IMG/VR virus record: IMGVR_UViG_3300030385_001875
Location: 905 to 64,904 of that record
Reading direction: 5' to 3' (one strand)
Length of the DNA stretch: 64,000 nt
From: a virus
Taxonomy: Duplodnaviria; Caudoviricetes
Shown here: piece after piece, positions 7,186 through 60,177 of the stretch
Numbering within the stretch: position 1 is the stretch's first letter
How the letters are laid out: each line of letters starts with the position of its first letter
The notes under the pieces: generated by a model
Seen by the model: only the letters and a program-made list of their open reading frames with translations
Database searches by the model: none
Told to the model about the DNA's origin: nothing
Translations under genes and position numbers: made by a program

Positions 7186-7426
7186 GATACTCAAGGGATA
7201 TCTATACTGGAAAGGATGGAGGTCTCTATGGAAAAGGGGCAGGAAAGCTAATCAAGAAGCTATTGAAGACCTTCTTAACCAAATTAGGATTTCTGGTAAG
7301 ACCGTTTCTGAGACCGAAGAAGTAGAGAGGGTTCCTATCATGGAAAGCAAATCTAAATCGTTTACTGACAGTGAACTTTATGAAAAGGAGCGTCAGGTAG
7401 GGATAGAAAATTACCATTGGTAGCTT

Positions 7427-28428: not shown

Positions 28429-29056
28429 ACTGGAAATAGGTGGTGGGAGTAACCCTGCTGAAGGGTACTTAAACCTCGATATCAACGCTGATTGCAAACC
28501 TGATATAACAGGAGATGTGAGAGCGTTCTTTACACCTGATGTGGATCTGGAAGATTATCCTGATTTAATGGGAATCGATGAGTTTGTGTTTGACGAAATC
28601 AGGGCGACACATTTCGTTGAACATATCGAGTGGATATACCAGAAACCCATGTTTGAATGGTTTTACAAGGTATTGAAACCAAGCGGTAGAATTGTAATAG
28701 AGACCCCTAACTTGCACTGGATAATAAAGAGTTACCTTAAAAATTATGGTTCAGGAGAGTATCCCCAAGAAGACCACCCTGACCTTAACGGTACTAATGA
28801 TTTTGTCCCTTGGGTTAATTTTAAGCTGTTTTCTGGTTGCAGTCCCGGTGACTATCATCATGCTATGTTCGACAAAGTTTGGATGAGACGGGTTTTAAAA
28901 GAAACAGGGTTCACTCCTACGGTAAAGGCGAAAGGGGCGTACATACAGGCTATAGGGGTCAAGAAGGATTTGGGTTTGCCAGAGGAAGAGTATTATGTTC
29001 CACGAAATAATCGAAGATGGTGGGATGCGTTTAAGATGGGGCAGTGGATAAAATGA
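28421..29056 (+). CDS. SAM-dependent methyltransferase (Methyltransf_11-like)
   Basis: KLEIGGG..YLNLDI..PD..GD, FDEIRATHFVEH, KVLKPSG..ETPN. Confidence 0.8.
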   Translation: MDKLEIGGGSNPAEGYLNLDINADCKPDITGDVRAFFTPDVDLEDYPDLMGIDEFVFDEIRATHFVEHIEWIYQKPMFEWFYKVLKPSGRIVIETPNLHWIIKSYLKNYGSGEYPQEDHPDLNGTNDFVPWVNFKLFSGCSPGDYHHAMFDKVWMRRVLKETGFTPTVKAKGAYIQAIGVKKDLGLPEEEYYVPRNNRRWWDAFKMGQWIK

Positions 29057-29982
29057 AGGTACAACCTCTGTTTGAGTTAGGGATGTTTTCAAATAACCGT
29101 ATACATGCGACCTTAAAGAAATACGCACCTGAGACAGTAGTGTTCACAGGCGAATACGGAAGAACCCCTAACGGTATGCATTCTAGATGGGGGATAGATA
29201 CTTCCTGTGATGCCTATATTTTTCATGCAACCCCCGGAGGTGATTCTTACCGACAACTGTTCTGGGGTGAGAAGGACTGGGTTGTGACGTTGATGGAAGA
29301 GGTTGAAAGGAAACCTAAAATAATCTTGTTTGAAGTACACGACCTACTGGTTATGTACCCTGAATGGATTAAAGATAAAGATGTTATTCAGTCTTATAAG
29401 ATGTCGGATTGGTTTCCTGAACACCCTAACTTGATTTCCTATCCTATGCCCGGAAGCGGAAGGTGGATCGATGAAGATATATTTTACAGGAAAGAAGAGA
29501 TTGGGAAGAATCAGGGTCGCATTCTTGTGAGTTGTGACCAGTTGAAACGCAATCTATACGAAACCATATCTTCTATGGGGCATCCCCTGCATATTCTAGG
29601 TACGAGCAATCAGCGTTTTTTGGGGCAGATGAAAGAGAATGATACTTGTGGTACTATATATCCGCAAGACTCGGATAAGCTAAACGATCTCTATAACACT
29701 CTTGACTATGCAGTGAATTTTCAGGTTGTCGGGTTTGAAAGCTGGTTGGTTGAAGCGAGATTCTGCGGGGTGAAATGCTATTATCCTGACTGTGATCATG
29801 CAAGATCCCTTTTCGGTGATGAGAATGTAGGATTCTTTGATCTTGAAGATATAGAAGGGACGCTCAACCTTGAGAACGATATGACTGAGAGTGATATCGC
29901 TTACAGCAGACAGAAATGGGGTGCGGAACACAGAGTACCTTTGTTTTGGGAAGAGGTACGGAGCAGGATAATCCCTGAATAG
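29053..29982 (+). CDS. Probable GT-B glycosyltransferase
   Basis: IDEDIFY, LNDLYN..Y, GFESWLVEARFCGV (ExxxCG acceptor motif); cluster context. Start either 29044 or 29053. Confidence 0.55.
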   Translation: MKVQPLFELGMFSNNRIHATLKKYAPETVVFTGEYGRTPNGMHSRWGIDTSCDAYIFHATPGGDSYRQLFWGEKDWVVTLMEEVERKPKIILFEVHDLLVMYPEWIKDKDVIQSYKMSDWFPEHPNLISYPMPGSGRWIDEDIFYRKEEIGKNQGRILVSCDQLKRNLYETISSMGHPLHILGTSNQRFLGQMKENDTCGTIYPQDSDKLNDLYNTLDYAVNFQVVGFESWLVEARFCGVKCYYPDCDHARSLFGDENVGFFDLEDIEGTLNLENDMTESDIAYSRQKWGAEHRVPLFWEEVRSRIIPE

Positions 29983-50906: not shown

Positions 50907-51842
50907 ATGAATAACCTAGCATTGACAAATCAGGAATTGGTAAAACCGATATCAGTGCTCTTCAAGGACAGGGTTTATCCTATCCATGTCAAGTTTAACC
51001 CCGCTACTGTTTGTAATATTCGTTGCACTTTCTGCAATAATGATGATTATAATTATTTGAGTCCTGATGCTAAAAATCTGGCAAACATCCCAGATACCAT
51101 CAAGATGTTTAAAGGGTTGCGTGATCGTGGCACAAAGGCTGTTAGTATCGAAGGTGGTGGTGAGCCTACAGTTCATCCTGATTTCAACTTACTGGTTTCA
51201 TCATTGGCAGGTTTGGGTCTTGAGGTAGGGTTGTTAACCAATGGCACTCGATTAAAATCAATTGAGCCTGTGATGGGCTTGTTCACTTGGGTAAGGGTAA
51301 GTTTCTCTGATGAATATGAAGATATAACAGCAAATGACCTGACATTGGACCTAGTTCTGGATCAGGTCTCAAGCTGGATAAAAACTGAGCAGCAGGTCGA
51401 TATCAGTTTCAATTTCGTGGATATGGGGATCGATAACGTTATATGGGACGGGGTTGTTGAGTTCATAGCCGAACATCAGGGATACAGCAACTTCTTGGGG
51501 ATGAGGGTCTCACCTGATGATACTCAAGATAAAGGATTGACTAAAGAGTCTGATCTTGAAAGTGTTATCTTTACAGGGGGAGTAACTGAAGACACTCCCA
51601 TACCTAAAGGGGGTCGATGTAAGGTAGGGTTAGCCAGACCCGTGATAACCCCTAATCATACGGTATACGCTTGTTGTCGCCTGATGGAAGGGTTCAACTT
51701 CTCTGCACCTTATAAAGAAGACATCTTAACGATAATTGATAAGCAGATAGAATACACATGTTCTCTTACCGAATGCCCTTTCAACAGCTTAAGAGAGACC
51801 CTAAACAGTATTGACGAGGTGAGGCATCCGAATTTTGTTTGA
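50907..51842 (+). CDS. Radical SAM protein with SPASM/twitch-like C-terminus
   Basis: CNIRCTFC, EGGGEPTVHP, LLTNG, WVRVS; C..VYACC..C...C. Confidence 0.9.
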   Translation: MNNLALTNQELVKPISVLFKDRVYPIHVKFNPATVCNIRCTFCNNDDYNYLSPDAKNLANIPDTIKMFKGLRDRGTKAVSIEGGGEPTVHPDFNLLVSSLAGLGLEVGLLTNGTRLKSIEPVMGLFTWVRVSFSDEYEDITANDLTLDLVLDQVSSWIKTEQQVDISFNFVDMGIDNVIWDGVVEFIAEHQGYSNFLGMRVSPDDTQDKGLTKESDLESVIFTGGVTEDTPIPKGGRCKVGLARPVITPNHTVYACCRLMEGFNFSAPYKEDILTIIDKQIEYTCSLTECPFNSLRETLNSIDEVRHPNFV

Positions 51843-51851
51843 ATTCAAACG

Positions 51852-52832
51852 TTGAAAGGAATAGTTGCAGTTGTTCATGGGGAACCGCCCAACTCATATG
51901 ATAACCCTATGCCTGAACACCTTCTGGATCAAGTAAAGTTAGGCCCACAGGGAGCAACCGATCCTGCCACTAATCTTATGGATAGAGGGTTTACATATCA
52001 ATATCATAACTGGGAGATCTTACCACTTTTAGGGGAGGGTTATGAGTTCAGGAACATGTCTCTCGACAAAGTTCCTAACCATGTCATCGAGTATGCTTTT
52101 ATATATGTAGGCAATTTTCATCTAGAGACATCTTTGTCGTTCTTGTCCTCTGCTTTTGATTCTTGCCGTAATGTTTTTCTTTTTCACGATTTAAACTCTT
52201 TTTGGCTATTGTCTACAGCTCTTGTTTTTCTGGAAGAACATAAAGAAAAAATAACGGGGCTTATTGTTCAGAACCCTGATATAGTTAATGTTGTTGAAAA
52301 GGTAACTGGTATAAAAACTTTGGTAGCCGTAAGTACCACTGACGGATTGGAAGAGGATATCAAACAGGTACAAGAGCCAACTAAAGAGTTATTGGTTGCT
52401 GGAGGGCCAAATGAACGGGGTGGTATCGTTGGCAACACTTTTGCAGAATACCATTTCAAAGGCAATTATGATGTTATCCAAAGATACCCGCATGAACTCC
52501 CAAAAGTGTTAGATGGTTGTGCGAATTTTTATGAACATATGGAACTGGATGCTTGGCGAAAGTTTATTGTTGATTATAAATATATAATTGATGGTACAAA
52601 TGGGGGGTGTTCTTATGGTCGTGTAGGTTGGGATGCTTTTTGTTCGGGCCGTAGTTTTATTAGTGTTAAGAATAGAAGCTACGCATCTTACCTGTTTGAT
52701 GCCATCTCTATTAATTCTGAGGTTGACTTGGCTGACTGGGAAGATATTGGTTGGCAAGAGGCACATAAATTAGCCAAAGAACGGTTAGTCACTAAAGAAG
52801 ATCTACATGCTATGTGGTTACAGGTTCTTTAA
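51852..52832 (+). CDS. Probable glycosyltransferase-like protein
   Basis: C-terminal YKYIID..SYGRVGWDAFCSG resembles GT-B; cluster context. Confidence 0.4.
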   Translation: MKGIVAVVHGEPPNSYDNPMPEHLLDQVKLGPQGATDPATNLMDRGFTYQYHNWEILPLLGEGYEFRNMSLDKVPNHVIEYAFIYVGNFHLETSLSFLSSAFDSCRNVFLFHDLNSFWLLSTALVFLEEHKEKITGLIVQNPDIVNVVEKVTGIKTLVAVSTTDGLEEDIKQVQEPTKELLVAGGPNERGGIVGNTFAEYHFKGNYDVIQRYPHELPKVLDGCANFYEHMELDAWRKFIVDYKYIIDGTNGGCSYGRVGWDAFCSGRSFISVKNRSYASYLFDAISINSEVDLADWEDIGWQEAHKLAKERLVTKEDLHAMWLQVL

Positions 52833-52854
52833 ATAAAATACAGGAGATAGTAAT

Positions 52855-53496
52855 ATGGAAACGTTGACCGAGGTAAGGAATCACTGGGTTGAAAAGGGTT
52901 GGCATATTGGTAATCAGAAGTCGGGGATAGGTTATTTGGAGAATTTTTATGATAAGGTTTTCCCCCCATTAAGAGAAAATTGCAAAGCCTTATTGGAAAT
53001 AGGTGTTTGGCATGGAGGCAGTTTAGACCTATGGAGGGCATACTTTCCTGACGAAACTGAAATATATGGTATCGACAATCTCCCAGAAAACGTCCTCTAT
53101 CGTTCAGAGGTAGAGGGTCACCACCTCGAAGGTGATGAAATTAAAGGGGCAACGCTTATTGTAGGGGATGCTTATTCAGATGAAGTCGTGAACCAGCTTC
53201 AAGATAACTATTTTGATATTATTATAGACGATGGTAACCACGCATATACGTCTTGGGAAATCCTGATAGTCAAGTATTACCCTAAATTAAAGACTGGGGG
53301 AATAATGATTATTGAAGATCTGATGTCCACCCTCGATATTGGCTCCACGGAGAGGGAATCTTTAAAGGCTAAGGCAGAAGAGGTGGGATTTTCCTCTGTT
53401 GAAGAGCACGATATGAGTGGATTCGCCAATGGTGCACATTTTGATAATAACCCTATGCTTCAGGGGGAGACTTTTATATTAAAACTAGAAAAATAA
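52855..53496 (+). CDS. Class I SAM methyltransferase (Methyltransf_24-like)
   Basis: LLEIGVWHGGSLDLWRAYFP..IYGID, FDIIIDDGNH, LKTGGIMIIED. Confidence 0.9.
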   Translation: METLTEVRNHWVEKGWHIGNQKSGIGYLENFYDKVFPPLRENCKALLEIGVWHGGSLDLWRAYFPDETEIYGIDNLPENVLYRSEVEGHHLEGDEIKGATLIVGDAYSDEVVNQLQDNYFDIIIDDGNHAYTSWEILIVKYYPKLKTGGIMIIEDLMSTLDIGSTERESLKAKAEEVGFSSVEEHDMSGFANGAHFDNNPMLQGETFILKLEK

Positions 53497-54279
53497 ATGT
53501 TAAACCTCTGGAACTCTCAAACCCCCCAGACGATTATTATGACTTCAGCTATGTATACAGGGACAACTTTCCTGAGAGAACTTTTGATATCGATACCGCA
53601 CTTGGTAACAACCCTAACCAGAGACCTAGCCAATGACAAGTCGGGGCCTTTTTATTTGCAGGATTGCACAGGTAAGGTTTGGAATTCACCTCAAATTAAC
53701 TTAACTGATCTTAATAGCTATTTAACTAAACTGAAGAGAGGTAATGGCAAGATATTATTCCTAGAAGGGCATATCCATGAACATTGGATGCACAGTCTTG
53801 TCTTTTTTGTGACTTTTAATCATAAAGTCATATCCCCCATAAGACATCCATTTGATTCGTTGCTAACGAAATACCTGAGACAAGAACCTCATATCCTAAA
53901 TACTGACCCTTACGACAGGCATCCGGGTTGGCTTTGGTCTTACTTGCAGATCCTAGCCTTACAAAAGAATCGACCTAAAGATGTAGTTTTGGTTCCTGTT
54001 GATTTATTAGGTCAAAAACCTGAAGAGGAACGGGTAACCGAACTTGTTTCTTTGTTAGCTAGTATTGGTGTCAAGGTCAGTGAAAAGAAAAATCAGGAAT
54101 TTTACCAGTTAGCTAGGGAATGGAAACCAACAAACACTCACACTTCACAGTTTCAAGAAGAAAAGAGAGCAGTCAGCGATGAAGTGTATCAAGAAATTAC
54201 TGACAGGTTAGAGAAATCCAATGTTTACTACTATTTGGAACAAGCAGGGATTCATTACCCCATAAAAAAAAGACCCTAG
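53497..54279 (+). CDS. Sulfotransferase-like protein
   Basis: 5'-PSB-like TSAMYTGTTFLRELL and 3'-PB-like IRHPFDSLLT. Confidence 0.65.
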   Translation: MLNLWNSQTPQTIIMTSAMYTGTTFLRELLISIPHLVTTLTRDLANDKSGPFYLQDCTGKVWNSPQINLTDLNSYLTKLKRGNGKILFLEGHIHEHWMHSLVFFVTFNHKVISPIRHPFDSLLTKYLRQEPHILNTDPYDRHPGWLWSYLQILALQKNRPKDVVLVPVDLLGQKPEEERVTELVSLLASIGVKVSEKKNQEFYQLAREWKPTNTHTSQFQEEKRAVSDEVYQEITDRLEKSNVYYYLEQAGIHYPIKKRP

Positions 54280-54302
54280 TGAATGAGACTAGGATCTTTT
54301 TT
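54264..54302. terminator. Bidirectional terminator at the convergence of the two genome arms
   Basis: A8-GACCCTAGT-loop-ACTAGGATC-T6. Confidence 0.7.
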
Positions 54303-54387
54303 ATTGTTTGAAAATAACAAAGGAGAAGCAATATGAACGAGCGATGTCTGAAAACGCTATGACTGAAGCACACATTGCAACATAAAC

Positions 54388-54416
54388 AGTCTAACTCAAC
54401 AGAACAGTCTTGTCAA
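54388..54416 (-). promoter_or_regulatory. sigma70-like promoter pointing toward the 54264 terminator
   Basis: TTGACA (54416-54411), 17-nt spacer, TAGACT (54393-54388). Confidence 0.55.
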
Positions 54417-54421
54417 GAGTC

Positions 54422-54968
54422 GTATCGTTGTGTCCCGTCTCGTCGCATTGTTATGTTGTGGGATGTCGCATTGTGTTATGTCGCATTGTCCAGTAACGTC
54501 CTGATCCGTCCCGTCTCGTCGCAGTGTCAAGTGCAGTCCGGTCCCGTAAAGTCGCATTGTATTGTTTGGGCTAGTTTCGTACTGTATTGGTTACGTCGCA
54601 ATGGCAAGTCAAATAGCGTATAGTTTGGTCGCATTGTGATGTCAAGTGAAGTCTGGTCGGGTCCCGTCCAGTCGCATTGTCCCGTACAGTTGCGTTCTGT
54701 TTAGTCGCATTGTCAAGTCACGTTCGGGGTGAAGGCTCGTCCTGTCGCATTGTGAAGTCCTGTCGTGTCATGTCCAGTCCCGTCGCATTGTATCGTATTG
54801 TCCTGTCTTTGTCTGGTCATGTCGCATTGTACCGTATCGGTGCGTCAAGTCTTGTCGCATAATGTATCGTCGCATTGTTCGGTAGCGGATAAGTTAGGTC
54901 CTGTCGCATTGTTTCGTTTTGTTTTGTCCAGTAACGCCCTGTTTCGTTCCGTCGCATTGTAATGTAAT
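54422..54968. repeat. Pentamer-periodic array 1: (GT-NNN)n blocks punctuated by GTCGCATTGT; candidate guide-RNA array
   Basis: 16 motif copies (13 exact; variants at 54518, 54595, 54854). Start-to-start spacings 23,15,38,33,44,33,43,33,40,38,39,33,15,34,48. GT recurs every 5 nt between motifs. Confidence 0.92.
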
Positions 54969-54982
54969 TGAACTTTTTTCGT

Positions 54983-55020
54983 AAAAAAAAGCGATTTGGC
55001 GAATTTTTCGAGAATTGCTT
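54983..55020 (-). terminator. Terminator-like hairpin + U8 between the epimerase and array 1
   Basis: AAGCGATT...AATTGCTT stem with inner CGAA/TTCG; A8 run on the + strand. Confidence 0.5.
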
Positions 55021-55063
55021 CGTATAGGGTCGGAACAGGGGCTGTTAGAGTAGCCCCCACCCC

Positions 55064-55072
55064 ATTATAGCA
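55064..55072 (-). promoter_or_regulatory. Extended -10 promoter (TGnTATAAT) facing array 1
   Basis: Minus strand TG-C-TATAAT immediately after the epimerase stop. Confidence 0.5.
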
Positions 55073-55074
55073 CA

Positions 55075-56082
55075 TTAGCACCAATCGTGATAATCTTTGT
55101 ACCAATCCACGAAATTTTGTACCCCCACCTTAATAAAAGTGCGAGGTCGGTAAGTCGTCACTTCCTGCAATTTACTGATATCTGCATTGGTGAAACTGAT
55201 ATCTCCCAGTTGATAATCTGTTAGCTTGATTTTCAGCTTTTTCCCCGTTGCATCTTCAATCGCTTTCACAAAGTGATACTTACCCTGCCAATCCTCTGAA
55301 TAAAGCGGGACGGGATTGTTTGATCCCACGTTGAAGATATGATGATAAAATGGCCTTGGGTTTTCTATACCACTCAACCCTCGTTCCATCGCTAAGACCA
55401 AACCTTCTACCGCATCATCGACGTAGGTAAAGTCTCTGGCTTGGGAGCCAGACCCATACAACTCTACCTCTTCATCTTCAAGGATAGCTTTAGTGAATTT
55501 CCATAAAGCCATATCGGGTCTACCCCAAGGCCCGTAAACAGAAAATAACCTTAAACCTGTGCAAGGAATTCCGTACATGCGGGAATAAGCTTCTGCTGTC
55601 ACCTCGTTACTCTTCTTGGTAGCAGCATACAGCGAATAAGGGTGATCTGTGTTATCAGTTTCCTTGTACCCTGTGGATGTACTAACCCCATAAACACTTC
55701 CTGAAGAAGCGTACACCAAATGAGGTGTCGGGTTCATGTTTCGAGCAGTTTCCAGTACCGATTGGAAGCCTGTGATGTTAGGCAGGTATTCTTCAGGATG
55801 ATCGATTGAATGGCGAACACCCGCTTGTGCAGCAAGATGAATAATCACATCTATACCACGAAAAGTCAGGTCCTCTTTCTCCATCCCCACAACATCCATA
55901 TGTTTGAACTCGAATTTCCAGTTGTCCATCCATTCAAGATTACCGATCCTATCTTTTTTCAGCTTAACGTTATAGTAGTTATTGATGTTATCGATACCTA
56001 TAACGTTATGGTTATCGGATAACAATCTCTTAGTAACGTGATAACCAATAAACCCAGCGCAACCTGTAACTAGAATCTTCAT
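55075..56082 (-). CDS. NAD-dependent sugar epimerase (UDP-glucuronate 4-epimerase-like)
   Basis: VTGCAGFIG, HLAAQAGVR, YASSGSVYG, YAATKK, VYGPWGRPDMA, RDFTYVDD. Confidence 0.92.
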   Translation of the reverse strand: MKILVTGCAGFIGYHVTKRLLSDNHNVIGIDNINNYYNVKLKKDRIGNLEWMDNWKFEFKHMDVVGMEKEDLTFRGIDVIIHLAAQAGVRHSIDHPEEYLPNITGFQSVLETARNMNPTPHLVYASSGSVYGVSTSTGYKETDNTDHPYSLYAATKKSNEVTAEAYSRMYGIPCTGLRLFSVYGPWGRPDMALWKFTKAILEDEEVELYGSGSQARDFTYVDDAVEGLVLAMERGLSGIENPRPFYHHIFNVGSNNPVPLYSEDWQGKYHFVKAIEDATGKKLKIKLTDYQLGDISFTNADISKLQEVTTYRPRTFIKVGVQNFVDWYKDYHDWC

Positions 56083-57787: not shown

Positions 57788-57834
57788 AAAAAAAGCGTGA
57801 AAACTAACCGTTTTAGAGGCTAATTTTCACGCTT
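57788..57834 (-). terminator. Terminator immediately 3' (minus strand) of array 2
   Basis: AAGCGTGAAAA/TTTTCACGCTT stem + U7. Confidence 0.7.
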
Positions 57835-57840
57835 ACCAAT

Positions 57841-58241
57841 GTCACGTTTTGTGAAGTGTCGTACCGTTCTGTTTGGTCGCATTGTAAAGTACAGTGGGGT
57901 TGCGTGACGTTCCGTCGCATTGTAGAGTACAGTGTCGTAAGGTTTCGTCGCATTGTTGGGTGTTGGAACAGAAAGTATCGTCATGTCGCATTGTCTTGTT
58001 ATGTGGTGTATCGTATTGTCATGTCGCATTGTTACGTACTGTTTTGTCGCATTGTATAGTATCGTCTTGTCGCATTGTGAAGTTTTGTCCAGACTGCGTT
58101 GCGTCTCAGCTTGTCGCATTGTAAAGACATGAGAGTAAGCCTAGGCGCACCTAGGCTTATCTTTCATCCGTTTTTAGGCTTACGTTACCTTACTCATGGT
58201 ATAGTATCGTCTTGTCCTGTCGCATTGTTACGTTTCGTCGT
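57841..58241. repeat. Pentamer-periodic array 2, same GTCGCATTGT punctuation
   Basis: 9 exact copies at 57876, 57914, 57947, 57985, 58023, 58046, 58069, 58113, 58219. Spacings 38,33,38,38,23,23,44,106. Blocks such as gt-aaa gt-aca gt-ggg gt-tgc gt-gac gt-tcc. Confidence 0.92.
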
Positions 58242-58252
58242 ATTTGGGTTTG

Positions 58253-58780
58253 TCAACGGTAATACGGTTTTTGCTCAGGGAACTGTGACGGGAGGTATCC
58301 TTTGAACACCTCCGCTGTTATTTTCCCTTCACAAAGAACTGAATTCAGATCACTAAAGCTTCCCCTACCGTTGAACCTAGGATTCAATTTCTGTTGCAAG
58401 GCATGTCGGTATCGATGGGCATCTTCAAGCGTCTTGAATTTCTTCTTTATCGCATGTTTCAAGACACCTGAGTTGTACCACCATCCACCTTCTTCCTTAC
58501 CTCCAAACAGACGGTCAGTATCGTAGATTCCTACCCAGTAGGTTCCTTCATCCCTCAAAAGATGACTACGCCAGACCGCACCGTCACTAATATGGTCAAC
58601 GTGGATTTCTGACTCAACAGTCTTACTACACCCTTCACAGATGTAGAGATGGTCTCCCTTAAAAAGGAAAAGCCCGTCTGTTTTGCTCTGGGGCTCATCC
58701 CACGGGATGTCTGCCAACGTATCACAGTCAACGCATTCGATAACCCGTCTCAACTGAGTCTTGTGTTTATGTTTGTTCAT
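58253..58780 (-). CDS. Hypothetical protein with N-terminal Zn finger
   Basis: AAGGAGG RBS before ATG58780 (the track's GTG lies inside a terminator); CVDC...CEGC; FGGKEEGGWWY. Confidence 0.65.
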   Translation of the reverse strand: MNKHKHKTQLRRVIECVDCDTLADIPWDEPQSKTDGLFLFKGDHLYICEGCSKTVESEIHVDHISDGAVWRSHLLRDEGTYWVGIYDTDRLFGGKEEGGWWYNSGVLKHAIKKKFKTLEDAHRYRHALQQKLNPRFNGRGSFSDLNSVLCEGKITAEVFKGYLPSQFPEQKPYYR

Positions 58781-58808
58781 TGTTATTTCCTCCTTTCTAT
58801 TTTTAGGC

Positions 58809-58848
58809 AAAAAAAAATGGGTGAGAACAGAACTCCCTGCTCTCACCC
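58809..58848 (-). terminator. Rho-independent terminator
   Basis: GGGTGAGA/TCTCACCC + U9. Confidence 0.75.
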
Positions 58849-59405: not shown

Positions 59406-59503
59406 TATTGTGCTCCCACGACAATAGACATTACTTTCAAAAAGACTAGCACCCCCATACTACCAGCTATCAGGGTGAAAATGTCTGCGAAGAATGTTTT
59501 CAT
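59405..59503 (-). CDS. 32-aa single-TM peptide coupled to the RAMP gene (not in the ORF track)
   Basis: MKTFFADIFTLIAGSMGVLVFLKVMSIVVGAQ; ATGA overlap with the RAMP stop. Confidence 0.55.
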   Translation of the reverse strand: MKTFFADIFTLIAGSMGVLVFLKVMSIVVGAQ

Positions 59504-60177
59504 TTTTTCGCTCCCCTCTTCTTCTTCGCAGGTGGATCTATTTCTTCAAACACTACTACGTCGAACTTCCCTTTCTCAAAGCTTCGTTGGGAGCCCAGCC
59601 CAACTTCCTGTCCCAACTCAAGGATTTCTTGCAGGTGCTCGGGGTTAATGTCTTTAGTGCCTTCCATCCTCACACTGAGACACCAGATTTGAAACTCAAG
59701 GGTTGGCTTGATAAGATACTCCGCACTCTTGAGGATTGACCGCATCCCTTGCATGGTCTGAACGTGACCAGCAAAGTCCTCGATACCGTCTTCCTTGGGT
59801 CGGAACGGTTGAAATATAATCTTCTCTTCCGTGAACTCCTCCCCAATCCGTCCCTTCACCGCTGTCCCTTCACGAAGCGTCTGCTTACTTCCCCTGAGAA
59901 GTACAGTTAGCTTCAGTAGGGAAATGCACTGCTTCATCATCGCCTTGACAGCGTAGTCTCCAATATATAAAGCGTCTCTTTCAGTGCATCGCTTGAAGCC
60001 TGTTCGTACCTTCTCCTCCTCCTCTTCCAGATCCAAATCAGTTTCCACAATGGAGGTATCCTCTGACCCGAATTTCGCTTCCACGTAATTCTTGACGAGC
60101 TCTTTCGATTTCGGGAGCCCACCGTAGATACGGTTGCGGAATTCCAGCTTCACATTAAACTTCCTGAATATACTCAT
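59500..60177 (-). CDS. Stand-alone Cas7/Csm3-like RAMP-fold protein
   Basis: beta1 FNVKLEFRNRIYGGLP; LYIGDYAVKAMMK (cf. Csm3 PYIPGSSLKG); SAEYLIKPTLEFQI; C-terminal Gly-loop GLGSQRSFEKGKFDV; 225 aa; AAAGGAG RBS. Confidence 0.75.
   Translation of the reverse strand: MSIFRKFNVKLEFRNRIYGGLPKSKELVKNYVEAKFGSEDTSIVETDLDLEEEEEKVRTGFKRCTERDALYIGDYAVKAMMKQCISLLKLTVLLRGSKQTLREGTAVKGRIGEEFTEEKIIFQPFRPKEDGIEDFAGHVQTMQGMRSILKSAEYLIKPTLEFQIWCLSVRMEGTKDINPEHLQEILELGQEVGLGSQRSFEKGKFDVVVFEEIDPPAKKKRGAKK

Follow-up and report, generated by a model that had tools for sequence, protein, structure and literature searches.

Two intergenic arrays in this phage genome repeat one short motif at one 5-base period, and the question that they raise is what such a scaffold is for and which gene it serves. 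The window, that is, the whole stretch of DNA analysed here (64,000 bases), is made up of bases 905-64904 of a 64,904-base IMG/VR virus record that CheckV rates as complete. An initial annotation, made from the letters of the window, had described the second array as a copy of the first with different content, had read it as a minus-strand RNA co-oriented with a RAMP gene, and had argued that two separate loci on one scaffold point to function. In this paper we count the motif in the whole record, compare the arrays and the RAMP (here protein X) with those of related loci, and weigh the possible readings. The following features carry the argument.

54420 to 54965, no strand assigned: array 1, with the same grammar as array 2 and different content; 16 GCGAC cores in the parse, 13 of them the exact 10-mer.
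57793 to 57834, minus strand: intrinsic-terminator-like hairpin of 17 pairs, then TTTTT; it directly abuts the last array 2 pentamer.
57841 to 58122, no strand assigned: array 2 main block, read on the plus strand as (GTNNN)n units closed by GTCGCATT and on the minus strand as AAT-GCGAC-(NNNAC)n.
58123 to 58198 (76 bases), no strand assigned: structured insert of array 2, a long hairpin around TAAGCCTAGG-CGCA-CCTAGGCTTA.
58199 to 58252, no strand assigned: distal mini-block of array 2, with one exact core (58219-58228) and in-phase pentamers on either side.
58253 to 58846, minus strand: ORF between X and array 2, function not assigned, with two CxxC pairs near the N-terminus.
59500 to 60177, minus strand: protein X (225 aa), a RAMP of Cas7 fold that resembles Vipr; its RRM core bears a long beta-hairpin 'thumb' (residues 131-156) and the glycine-rich loop GLGSxRSFExGKF.

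A scan of the entire 64,904-base record gave 22 exact copies of GTCGCATTGT, 22 forward and 0 reverse, with 13 at 54442-54960 in array 1 and nine at 57876-58228 in array 2, all on the plus strand; the control pattern gave 0 matches in the same record. A search of the rest of the genome for further clusters had been proposed in the initial annotation, and every one of the 22 copies lies within arrays 1 and 2. When up to one mismatch is allowed the window holds 25 copies, against 2.48 expected (sd 1.65, largest 8; none of 100 shuffles reached 25). Start-to-start intervals in array 2 are 38, 33, 38, 38, 23, 23, 44 and 106 bases, and the scan thus reproduces both the nine exact motifs and the six of eight intervals equal to 8+5n that had been reported. 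Read on the minus strand, the units of the main block measure 48, 38, 33, 38, 38, 23, 23 and 44 bases; those of array 1 range from 15 to 70, with 10 of the 16 equal to 8+5n, and the motif scan and the unit parse together support the description of the arrays as two copies of one scaffold. Runs of at least four GT at period 5 occur 14 times on the plus strand and nowhere outside arrays 1 and 2. One of these runs contains the perfect GT blocks previously noted at 57841-57875, with 8 GT in phase at 57841-57877. The control dinucleotide AC formed three runs of four at period 5 on the plus strand, all of them outside the arrays.

Array 2 fills, as had been stated, the gap between a gene stop (58253) and a minus-strand terminator. 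Its distal mini-block extends into the stop codon of ORF 58253-58846, the first in-phase pentamer overlapping the stop, and at its other end the terminator-like site runs from 57834 to 57793 into its run of T. The insert folds at -37.2 kcal/mol on the plus strand (z -5.9, 0 of 200 shuffles as good) and at -28.2 on the minus strand (z -3.1), and bases 58123-58198 are unchanged in a 95%-identical relative; it may be the 3' tail or terminator of a plus-strand RNA, or a small mobile insert. The true start of ORF 58253-58846 is probably the ATG at 58780, after a purine-rich stretch encoding KEEIT, rather than the listed GTG, because that GTG lies inside a further terminator-like element (58848-58819).

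58819 to 58848, minus strand: terminator-like hairpin and T9, which would end the X operon ahead of the 58780 gene.

With this start and this terminator, the 58780 gene and array 2 would form a transcription unit of their own. Three genes, small and unrelated, separate X from array 2 and five more lie between array 2 and array 1; ORF 58253-58846 is not kept beside X in other loci. A search of Rfam (E up to 1, 50-64 kb) returned three sub-threshold chance matches and nothing else, and the 54.3-58.3 kb region had no blastn match in a set of 50,697 phage records.

The 'RAMP gene' of the initial annotation proved to be well named, since 59500-60177 encodes a Cas7 fold by model, by Foldseek and by VIA-align. 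When the AlphaFold2 model of X (pLDDT 81.5, pTM 0.77) was compared with the PDB by Foldseek, all matches listed were CRISPR Cas7-type chains or complexes, including Cmr4 (6s6b_I, E 2.5e-7), type VII (9j9e, 8z4j) and Csm3 (6xn3_F, 6ifl_F), each at probability 1.0. The top matches in VIA-align (48,161 chains) were type VII Cas7 (Z 12.4), Csm3 (11.7) and Cmr4 (11.3 and 11.0), and in BFVD X matched predicted viral RAMPs at E 2.8e-11 and 1.6e-10. By sequence it has no match in Pfam or PHROGs, and a profile search of the PDB gave only a weak match to a Cas6 G-loop (E 0.61). The 30 homologues of X are every one metagenomic. Their alignment holds invariant glycines and arginines in the YGG.P motif, the G..RSILK hairpin tip and the GLGS.RSFE.GKF loop, with G193, R198 and G203 invariant in the G-loop and G137, G144 and R146 in the thumb. 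X is the only RAMP found among the 21 ORFs at 50.9-64 kb. The predicted complex of three X copies scored 0.32 (mark 0.42) and carries no weight either way.

Whether the arrays belong with X can be judged from other loci. We compared 28 X loci, 5 from IMG/VR and 23 from metagenomes, some of them copies of one phage; relatives of X sought in one genome per species across 185,579 prokaryote species numbered none (43 candidate stretches). In 25 of the 28 loci the flank measures 100 nt or more, and all but one of these 25 have an adjacent period-5 array. The array is downstream of X in 22, mostly 20-90 bases past the stop, and just upstream in 2 (L197, L198); at L199, where the X gene is cut at the contig end, there is no array in the 4 kb downstream. 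All 24 array loci share one orientation, with the C-anchored strand in the sense of X and the G-anchored strand opposite to it. At a BLASTP E of 1e-5 the window and 14 other loci have X alone in common, and divergent or non-homologous accessory genes may exist. The presence of same-grammar arrays beside homologues of X supports the earlier claim of a functional element tied to the RAMP gene. This link extends to distant relatives: in two high-GC temperate phages (L176, L177) whose X is 25% identical, units of 33 and 38 bases are built of three bases, NCGAC and pentamers, the anchor being CC in L176, fixed at 96% and 70%, and a lone C in L177, fixed at 94%. The same grammar at only 25% protein identity implies that it is old and under selection, and the arrays are real, conserved and, almost certainly, functional.

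The grammar itself was parsed from the arrays of this phage and of 14 related loci, which gave 202 distinct units. On the minus strand a unit opens with three bases, which are AAT in 99 of the 202, and goes on with GCGAC and then NNNAC pentamers; on the plus strand it reads as (GTNNN)n, GTCGC and then three bases. The length is 3 mod 5 (8+5n) in 163 of the 202, with peaks at 38 (60 units), 33 (46), 43 (24), 28 (11) and 48 (9). The 928 pentamers of the 159 in-phase units keep the consensus base at the two anchor positions in 90% and 94% of cases, with AC in 784; the three other positions are near-random, the anchor's own base is depleted there and 61 of the 64 triplets occur. The base preceding the GT anchor on the plus strand is G in only 13%. 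The canonical GGY/NN (YNNGG) consensus is absent from the units, whose anchor is GT on the plus strand and AC on the minus strand, and so are CRISPR-type direct repeats of about 23-55 bases: the constant part measures 8-10 bases and the 'spacers' are themselves phased pentamers. The minus-sense RNA is the less structured (-13 to -16 versus -21 to -37 kcal/mol per 100 nt), and structure is avoided on both strands in seven of eight strand-by-array tests (z +1.2 to +4.8), the exception being the antisense strand of L176 (z -0.9).

The units turn over in the manner of cassettes. A relative with a 95%-identical X has the same flanks, an array 2 that is shorter by about 89 alignment columns (manual count) and in which one unit is swapped for a different one, and an array 1 that carries a unit found in array 2 of this phage. 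One unit is nearly the same, by eye, in a phage whose X is only 59% identical. Metagenome contigs of four DNA runs break inside arrays, with joints between units and between the two arrays; at 85% likeness these joints are weak and hint at unit turnover only. The period of 5, a change of about 89 columns, which is not a multiple of 3, and BLASTP matches of the array 'ORFs' in frames of both strands all argue that the arrays are not protein-coding. The overlapping ORFs to which the initial annotation had drawn attention were checked for conservation at the protein level, and none is conserved.

Several candidates were dropped along the way. Coding repeats and a TRAP-like attenuator explain neither the RAMP link nor the 8+5n rule, and Chi or primase sites and a type III toxin-antitoxin RNA leave the same two features unexplained. 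A two-copy 10-mer pattern occurs in at least 120 stretches of genome contigs, and most of the 22 viral ones listed are tandem repeats of another kind that show no period-5 runs. The viral contig IMGVR_UViG_3300024251_000018 (L009/L025) carries a long tandem repeat of 12 bases, GTCGCAWTGNNC, which shares the GTCGCA core without the 5-base grammar.

We file the system as VIPR-type because it combines a solitary RAMP of viral origin with pentamer arrays beside it, in which some positions are fixed and others hypervariable, and with units that turn over like cassettes; it belongs to a kind published in 2026 and is not categorically new. In VIPR, according to the accessible parts of the preprints, phage-encoded RAMPs (Vipr) polymerise on RNAs of 9-16 YNNGG repeats with a 3' tail (bioRxiv 10.64898/2026.04.26.720920, 10.64898/2026.04.26.720927, 10.64898/2026.10.15.759431). 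One protomer sits on each repeat with GGY buried, and the NN bases pair with dsDNA under a one-base-skip rule, so that rival phages and satellites are silenced (bioRxiv 10.64898/2026.04.26.720920, 10.64898/2026.04.26.720927). The same accessible text names seven types, lists the alternative repeats NNNGG, YNNNG and NNNNG as well as 'staggered' arrays of abutting guides, surveys 667 systems, with staggered arrays outside those confirmed by RNA sequencing, and states that RAMPs share little sequence similarity (10.64898/2026.04.26.720920). Two other sources, as far as they are accessible, deal with other repeat systems (PMC10910872 and 10.64898/2026.09.22.753630), and a search of the literature on phage or solo Cas7 and on 5-nt periodicity found nothing relevant. 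On the present analysis it is quite likely that arrays 1 and 2 form with X a VIPR-type guide-RNA system, whichever strand supplies the RNA. What speaks against this assignment is that no sequence similarity to SUSP1 Vipr was detected, that GGY/NN is absent from the units, that no vap gene, an accessory which most though not all VIPR loci have, is conserved among the loci and that no targets were found in the searches described below.

Escherichia phage SUSP1 (NC_028808.2; VIPR type II, with Vipr, Vap1 and vrRNAs) allows a closer comparison. Its vipr gene lies at 28474-29061 (minus), GGTNN repeats occur on the vipr strand both upstream and downstream, and the structure of its Vipr is PDB 36pp. 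The phage studied here is like SUSP1 in several respects: it encodes a small RAMP in which an RRM core is joined by a G-loop and a thumb; its arrays are non-coding and flank the gene or follow it; the 5-base repeat combines fixed with hypervariable positions; cas genes are absent, here from the 21 ORFs at 50.9-64 kb; and array content varies between close relatives. Unlike SUSP1, it has GU (or AC) as anchor in place of GGY and three variable bases in place of two; its units comprise 3-8 pentamers and an 8-base mark, whereas SUSP1 has 9-16 repeats with a structured tail of about 40 nt and its own leader; and its G strand is antisense to the protein gene, with no conserved vap gene and no detectable sequence similarity. 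By hhalign a profile of 32 X sequences matched SUSP1 Vipr at a probability of 1.5% (E 0.033). In a hand alignment SUSP1 R138 and R179, which contact G2 and Y3, would correspond to the invariant R146 and R198 of X, and D177 and W178, which contact G1 and G2, would be without such a counterpart; a loop that keeps the arginines but not the Asp-Trp pair might go with an anchor shortened to G-Y. On their G strand the arrays resemble other VIPR types named in the accessible part of the preprint, being YNNNG in the marine group, NNNGG in L176 and NNNNG in L177. As in the staggered VIPR arrays, which the preprint's text describes apart from its figures and data files, the units abut without spacers.

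The best structural matches of X are the Cas7 backbones of types III, IV and VII (Csm3, Cmr4, Csf2 and type VII Cas7). Such backbones are filaments of RAMPs in which the thumb kinks the RNA at a fixed period, and mature crRNAs consist of an 8-base handle and a guide, in size ladders. Unlike in Cas7 effectors, the period here is 5 and not 6, the periodic anchor is carried by the RNA itself, the constant part is 8-10 bases against a repeat of 23-55 bases, and Pfam and PHROGs identify none of Cas5, Cas6, Cas10, cas1 and cas2 among the 21 ORFs at 50.9-64 kb.

The comparison establishes the grammar, its tie to a RAMP even in distant relatives and the cassette-like turnover; that the array is transcribed, that each pentamer takes one subunit, that DNA is the target, and which strand serves as the RNA, we infer. 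By analogy with SUSP1, the array would be transcribed and then cut or terminated into short units. One X subunit would occupy each 5-base repeat, with the two fixed bases buried in protein and the three variable bases shown in a row, and gapped recognition of rival phage or satellite DNA would lead to silencing. The 8-base punctuation GUCGC-AUU would shift the 5-base register by 3 and set the ends of the protein filament, in which case the 8+5n lengths would be 3-8 variable pentamers plus the core pentamer. It is rather doubtful that this lineage follows a separate code, in which each subunit buries two bases and displays three and the DNA is read by another rule than the one-base skip, perhaps ungapped or with other gaps. 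The target search recommended in the initial annotation was run: no targets were found in 331 kb or, with one guide, in IMG/VR. Gapped targets with a 2-base skip in this phage's own genome were equal to shuffled controls, and with skips of 0-3 in 196 kb and 331 kb (this phage and its relatives) they were equal to shuffled triplets; the few perfect skip-2 matches that were checked lay in arrays missed by masking. One 7-triplet guide, sought exactly in IMG/VR with skips of 0 and 1, gave 0 matches each; 331 kb is a small space to search, and an exact match is a strict demand.

Which strand would be the RNA depends in part on the signals around array 1.

55064 to 55093, minus strand: the most promoter-like sequence of the region, with TTATCA and TG-n-TATAAT 18 nt apart (10/12), a consensus match only.
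54388 to 54416, minus strand: promoter-like TTGACA-17-TAGACT at the far end of array 1, directed away from the array.
54262 to 54300, no strand assigned: hairpin preceded by an A-run and followed by a T-run, which would end the plus-strand operon and any minus-strand RNA leaving array 1.

We lean weakly towards a VIPR-type system with a plus-strand guide RNA, to which we give somewhat less than an even chance. Such an RNA would read (GUNNN)n and then GUCGCAUU, the 'YNNNG' type of the preprint's accessible text, and would be transcribed towards the X gene. The lean comes from the G-anchored guides of the published VIPR systems and from the match of three lineages to the three alternative types listed in that text. 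The variable tract would then stand ahead of the constant element, as it does in the vrRNAs that the text describes. The hairpin that follows the array 2 main block is the more stable on the plus strand, the G strand of the L174 group likewise has a conserved hairpin after its array, and the counterparts of SUSP1 R138 and R179 in the hand alignment may point the same way. Against the plus strand stand the antisense orientation of the G-anchored strand relative to X in 24 of 24 loci, when SUSP1 guides lie on the vipr strand; the position of array 2, wedged between a stop codon and a minus terminator; and the finding of no plus-strand promoter-like site ahead of array 1 or array 2. The arrays of L195, L176 and L177 also tell against it, since they start 3 to about 50 nt past the X stop with no terminator-like hairpin noticed by eye in this short gap, so that a minus-sense RNA must exist there.

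These last observations favour the reading of the initial annotation, a VIPR-type system with a minus-strand RNA, 5'-AAUGCGAC-(NNNAC)n, that is, ACAAUGCGAC-(NNNAC)n, co-transcribed with the upstream genes, which we hold to be possible, if tentatively. It would give a crRNA-like 8-base 5' handle with an AC anchor (elsewhere CC or C), a code that is absent from the accessible part of the preprint. We take AAUGCGAC to resemble the 8-base 5' handles of type I and type III crRNAs. On the minus strand array 2 is bounded by the stop of ORF 58253-58846, inside which it starts, and by a strong terminator; the most promoter-like sequence of the region, some 100 nt ahead of array 1, points into that array; the orientation relative to X is that of SUSP1 guides relative to vipr, and the RNA would be by far the less structured of the two. 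Set against this, the region holds 8 promoter-like sites where shuffles lead one to expect 9.9, the insert hairpin of array 2 is the weaker on this strand, the repeat types named in the accessible text are all G-anchored, and in the L174 group a terminator-like hairpin and U-rich run separate X from the array and leave no room for a promoter. A guide may be lacking altogether, X coating the array RNA as a scaffold, a sponge or an autoregulatory particle while the triplets drift freely; near-random variable positions, the want of a target under any skip rule and the want of a conserved accessory or effector gene are what this unlikely explanation has in its favour. Free drift sits poorly with units that are identical or nearly so, by eye, between phages with X only 59% identical, and with whole units swapped like cassettes; the relatives described in the accessible VIPR text are programmable guides, and the target search spanned only 331 kb and two exact-match scans.

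Two other explanations dispense with a VIPR-type guide. A Cas7 mimic and a repeat-handle-like RNA could poison host type I or III complexes in the manner of RNA anti-CRISPRs, as the Cas7 fold of X, the phage-borne setting and the presumed resemblance of the 8-base core to a crRNA handle would allow; yet CRISPR Cas7 backbones keep a 6-base register where the period here is 5, the core of only 8 to 10 bases falls short of a full repeat, and the grammar is kept in low-GC marine and in high-GC phages, each with its own anchor, which makes a decoy very improbable. The arrays might instead be DNA elements, iterons of a split replication origin or a partition or packaging site for a DNA-binding protein. 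Two separated clusters of one motif do recall split origins such as P4 ori and crr, and the setting is an early or replication region, where in L176 X is preceded by genes for a DnaG-type zinc finger and a VRR-NUC protein. Nonetheless the polarity relative to X is strict in 24 of 24 loci, the sole conserved partner has an RNA-binding fold, a 5-base period would put successive sites on opposite faces of the duplex, both strands avoid structure in 7 of 8 tests and unit content turns over rapidly, and we regard a DNA element as extremely improbable.

On the VIPR-type reading, the system would be a compact and little studied marine-phage branch of a family that, in the accessible text of its 2026 publication, was tested only with GGY/NN guides. 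The branch is marked by a two-base anchor, three programmable bases per subunit, short self-delimiting units of 8+5n, an inverted orientation of gene and array, and no conserved accessory gene. If its code differs, the rules for gapped RNA-guided DNA recognition would be wider and the guide denser, with 3/5 informative bases against 2/5, and the 8-base punctuation may bear on the origin of crRNA handles. If the minus strand is the true one, each unit would be an 8-base 5' handle AAUGCGAC and a guide measured by a Cas7-like filament, and the system would stand, as a form still alive today, midway from VIPR guides to CRISPR RNAs.

Some neighbouring features deserve mention. A 151-aa ORF in L167 (2049-2504, minus) lies between the X homologue and its array; it bears what we take to be an HNH-like motif, and may encode a homing endonuclease or else an accessory nuclease of the sort that some VIPR types have. 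The palindrome CGAAC-N4-GTTCG occurs between the array and a tyrosine integrase gene in L176 (about 7295-7312) and L177 (about 7232-7248). It looks to us like an actinobacterial LexA (SOS) box, a hint that DNA damage may induce the array or int. Elements similar to the far-end promoter-like site, TTGACA-17-TAnnnT, occur just after the arrays of L174, L183, L187 and L188. In these loci and in the window the element is followed by a stretch of 110-330 bases, ORF-less by eye, that ends in a terminator, and this stretch may encode another small RNA or a peptide that goes with the system. Array 1 is flanked by radical SAM, methyltransferase and NAD-epimerase/dehydratase genes (50907-56082), a cluster that suggests sugar or nucleotide modification by the phage. 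The NAD-dependent epimerase gene (55075-56082) is reduced in the close relative L022 (about 1800-1870) to an 18-codon remnant in which, by our own reading of the alignment, the first 12 codons are joined to the last 6, as an internal deletion would leave them.
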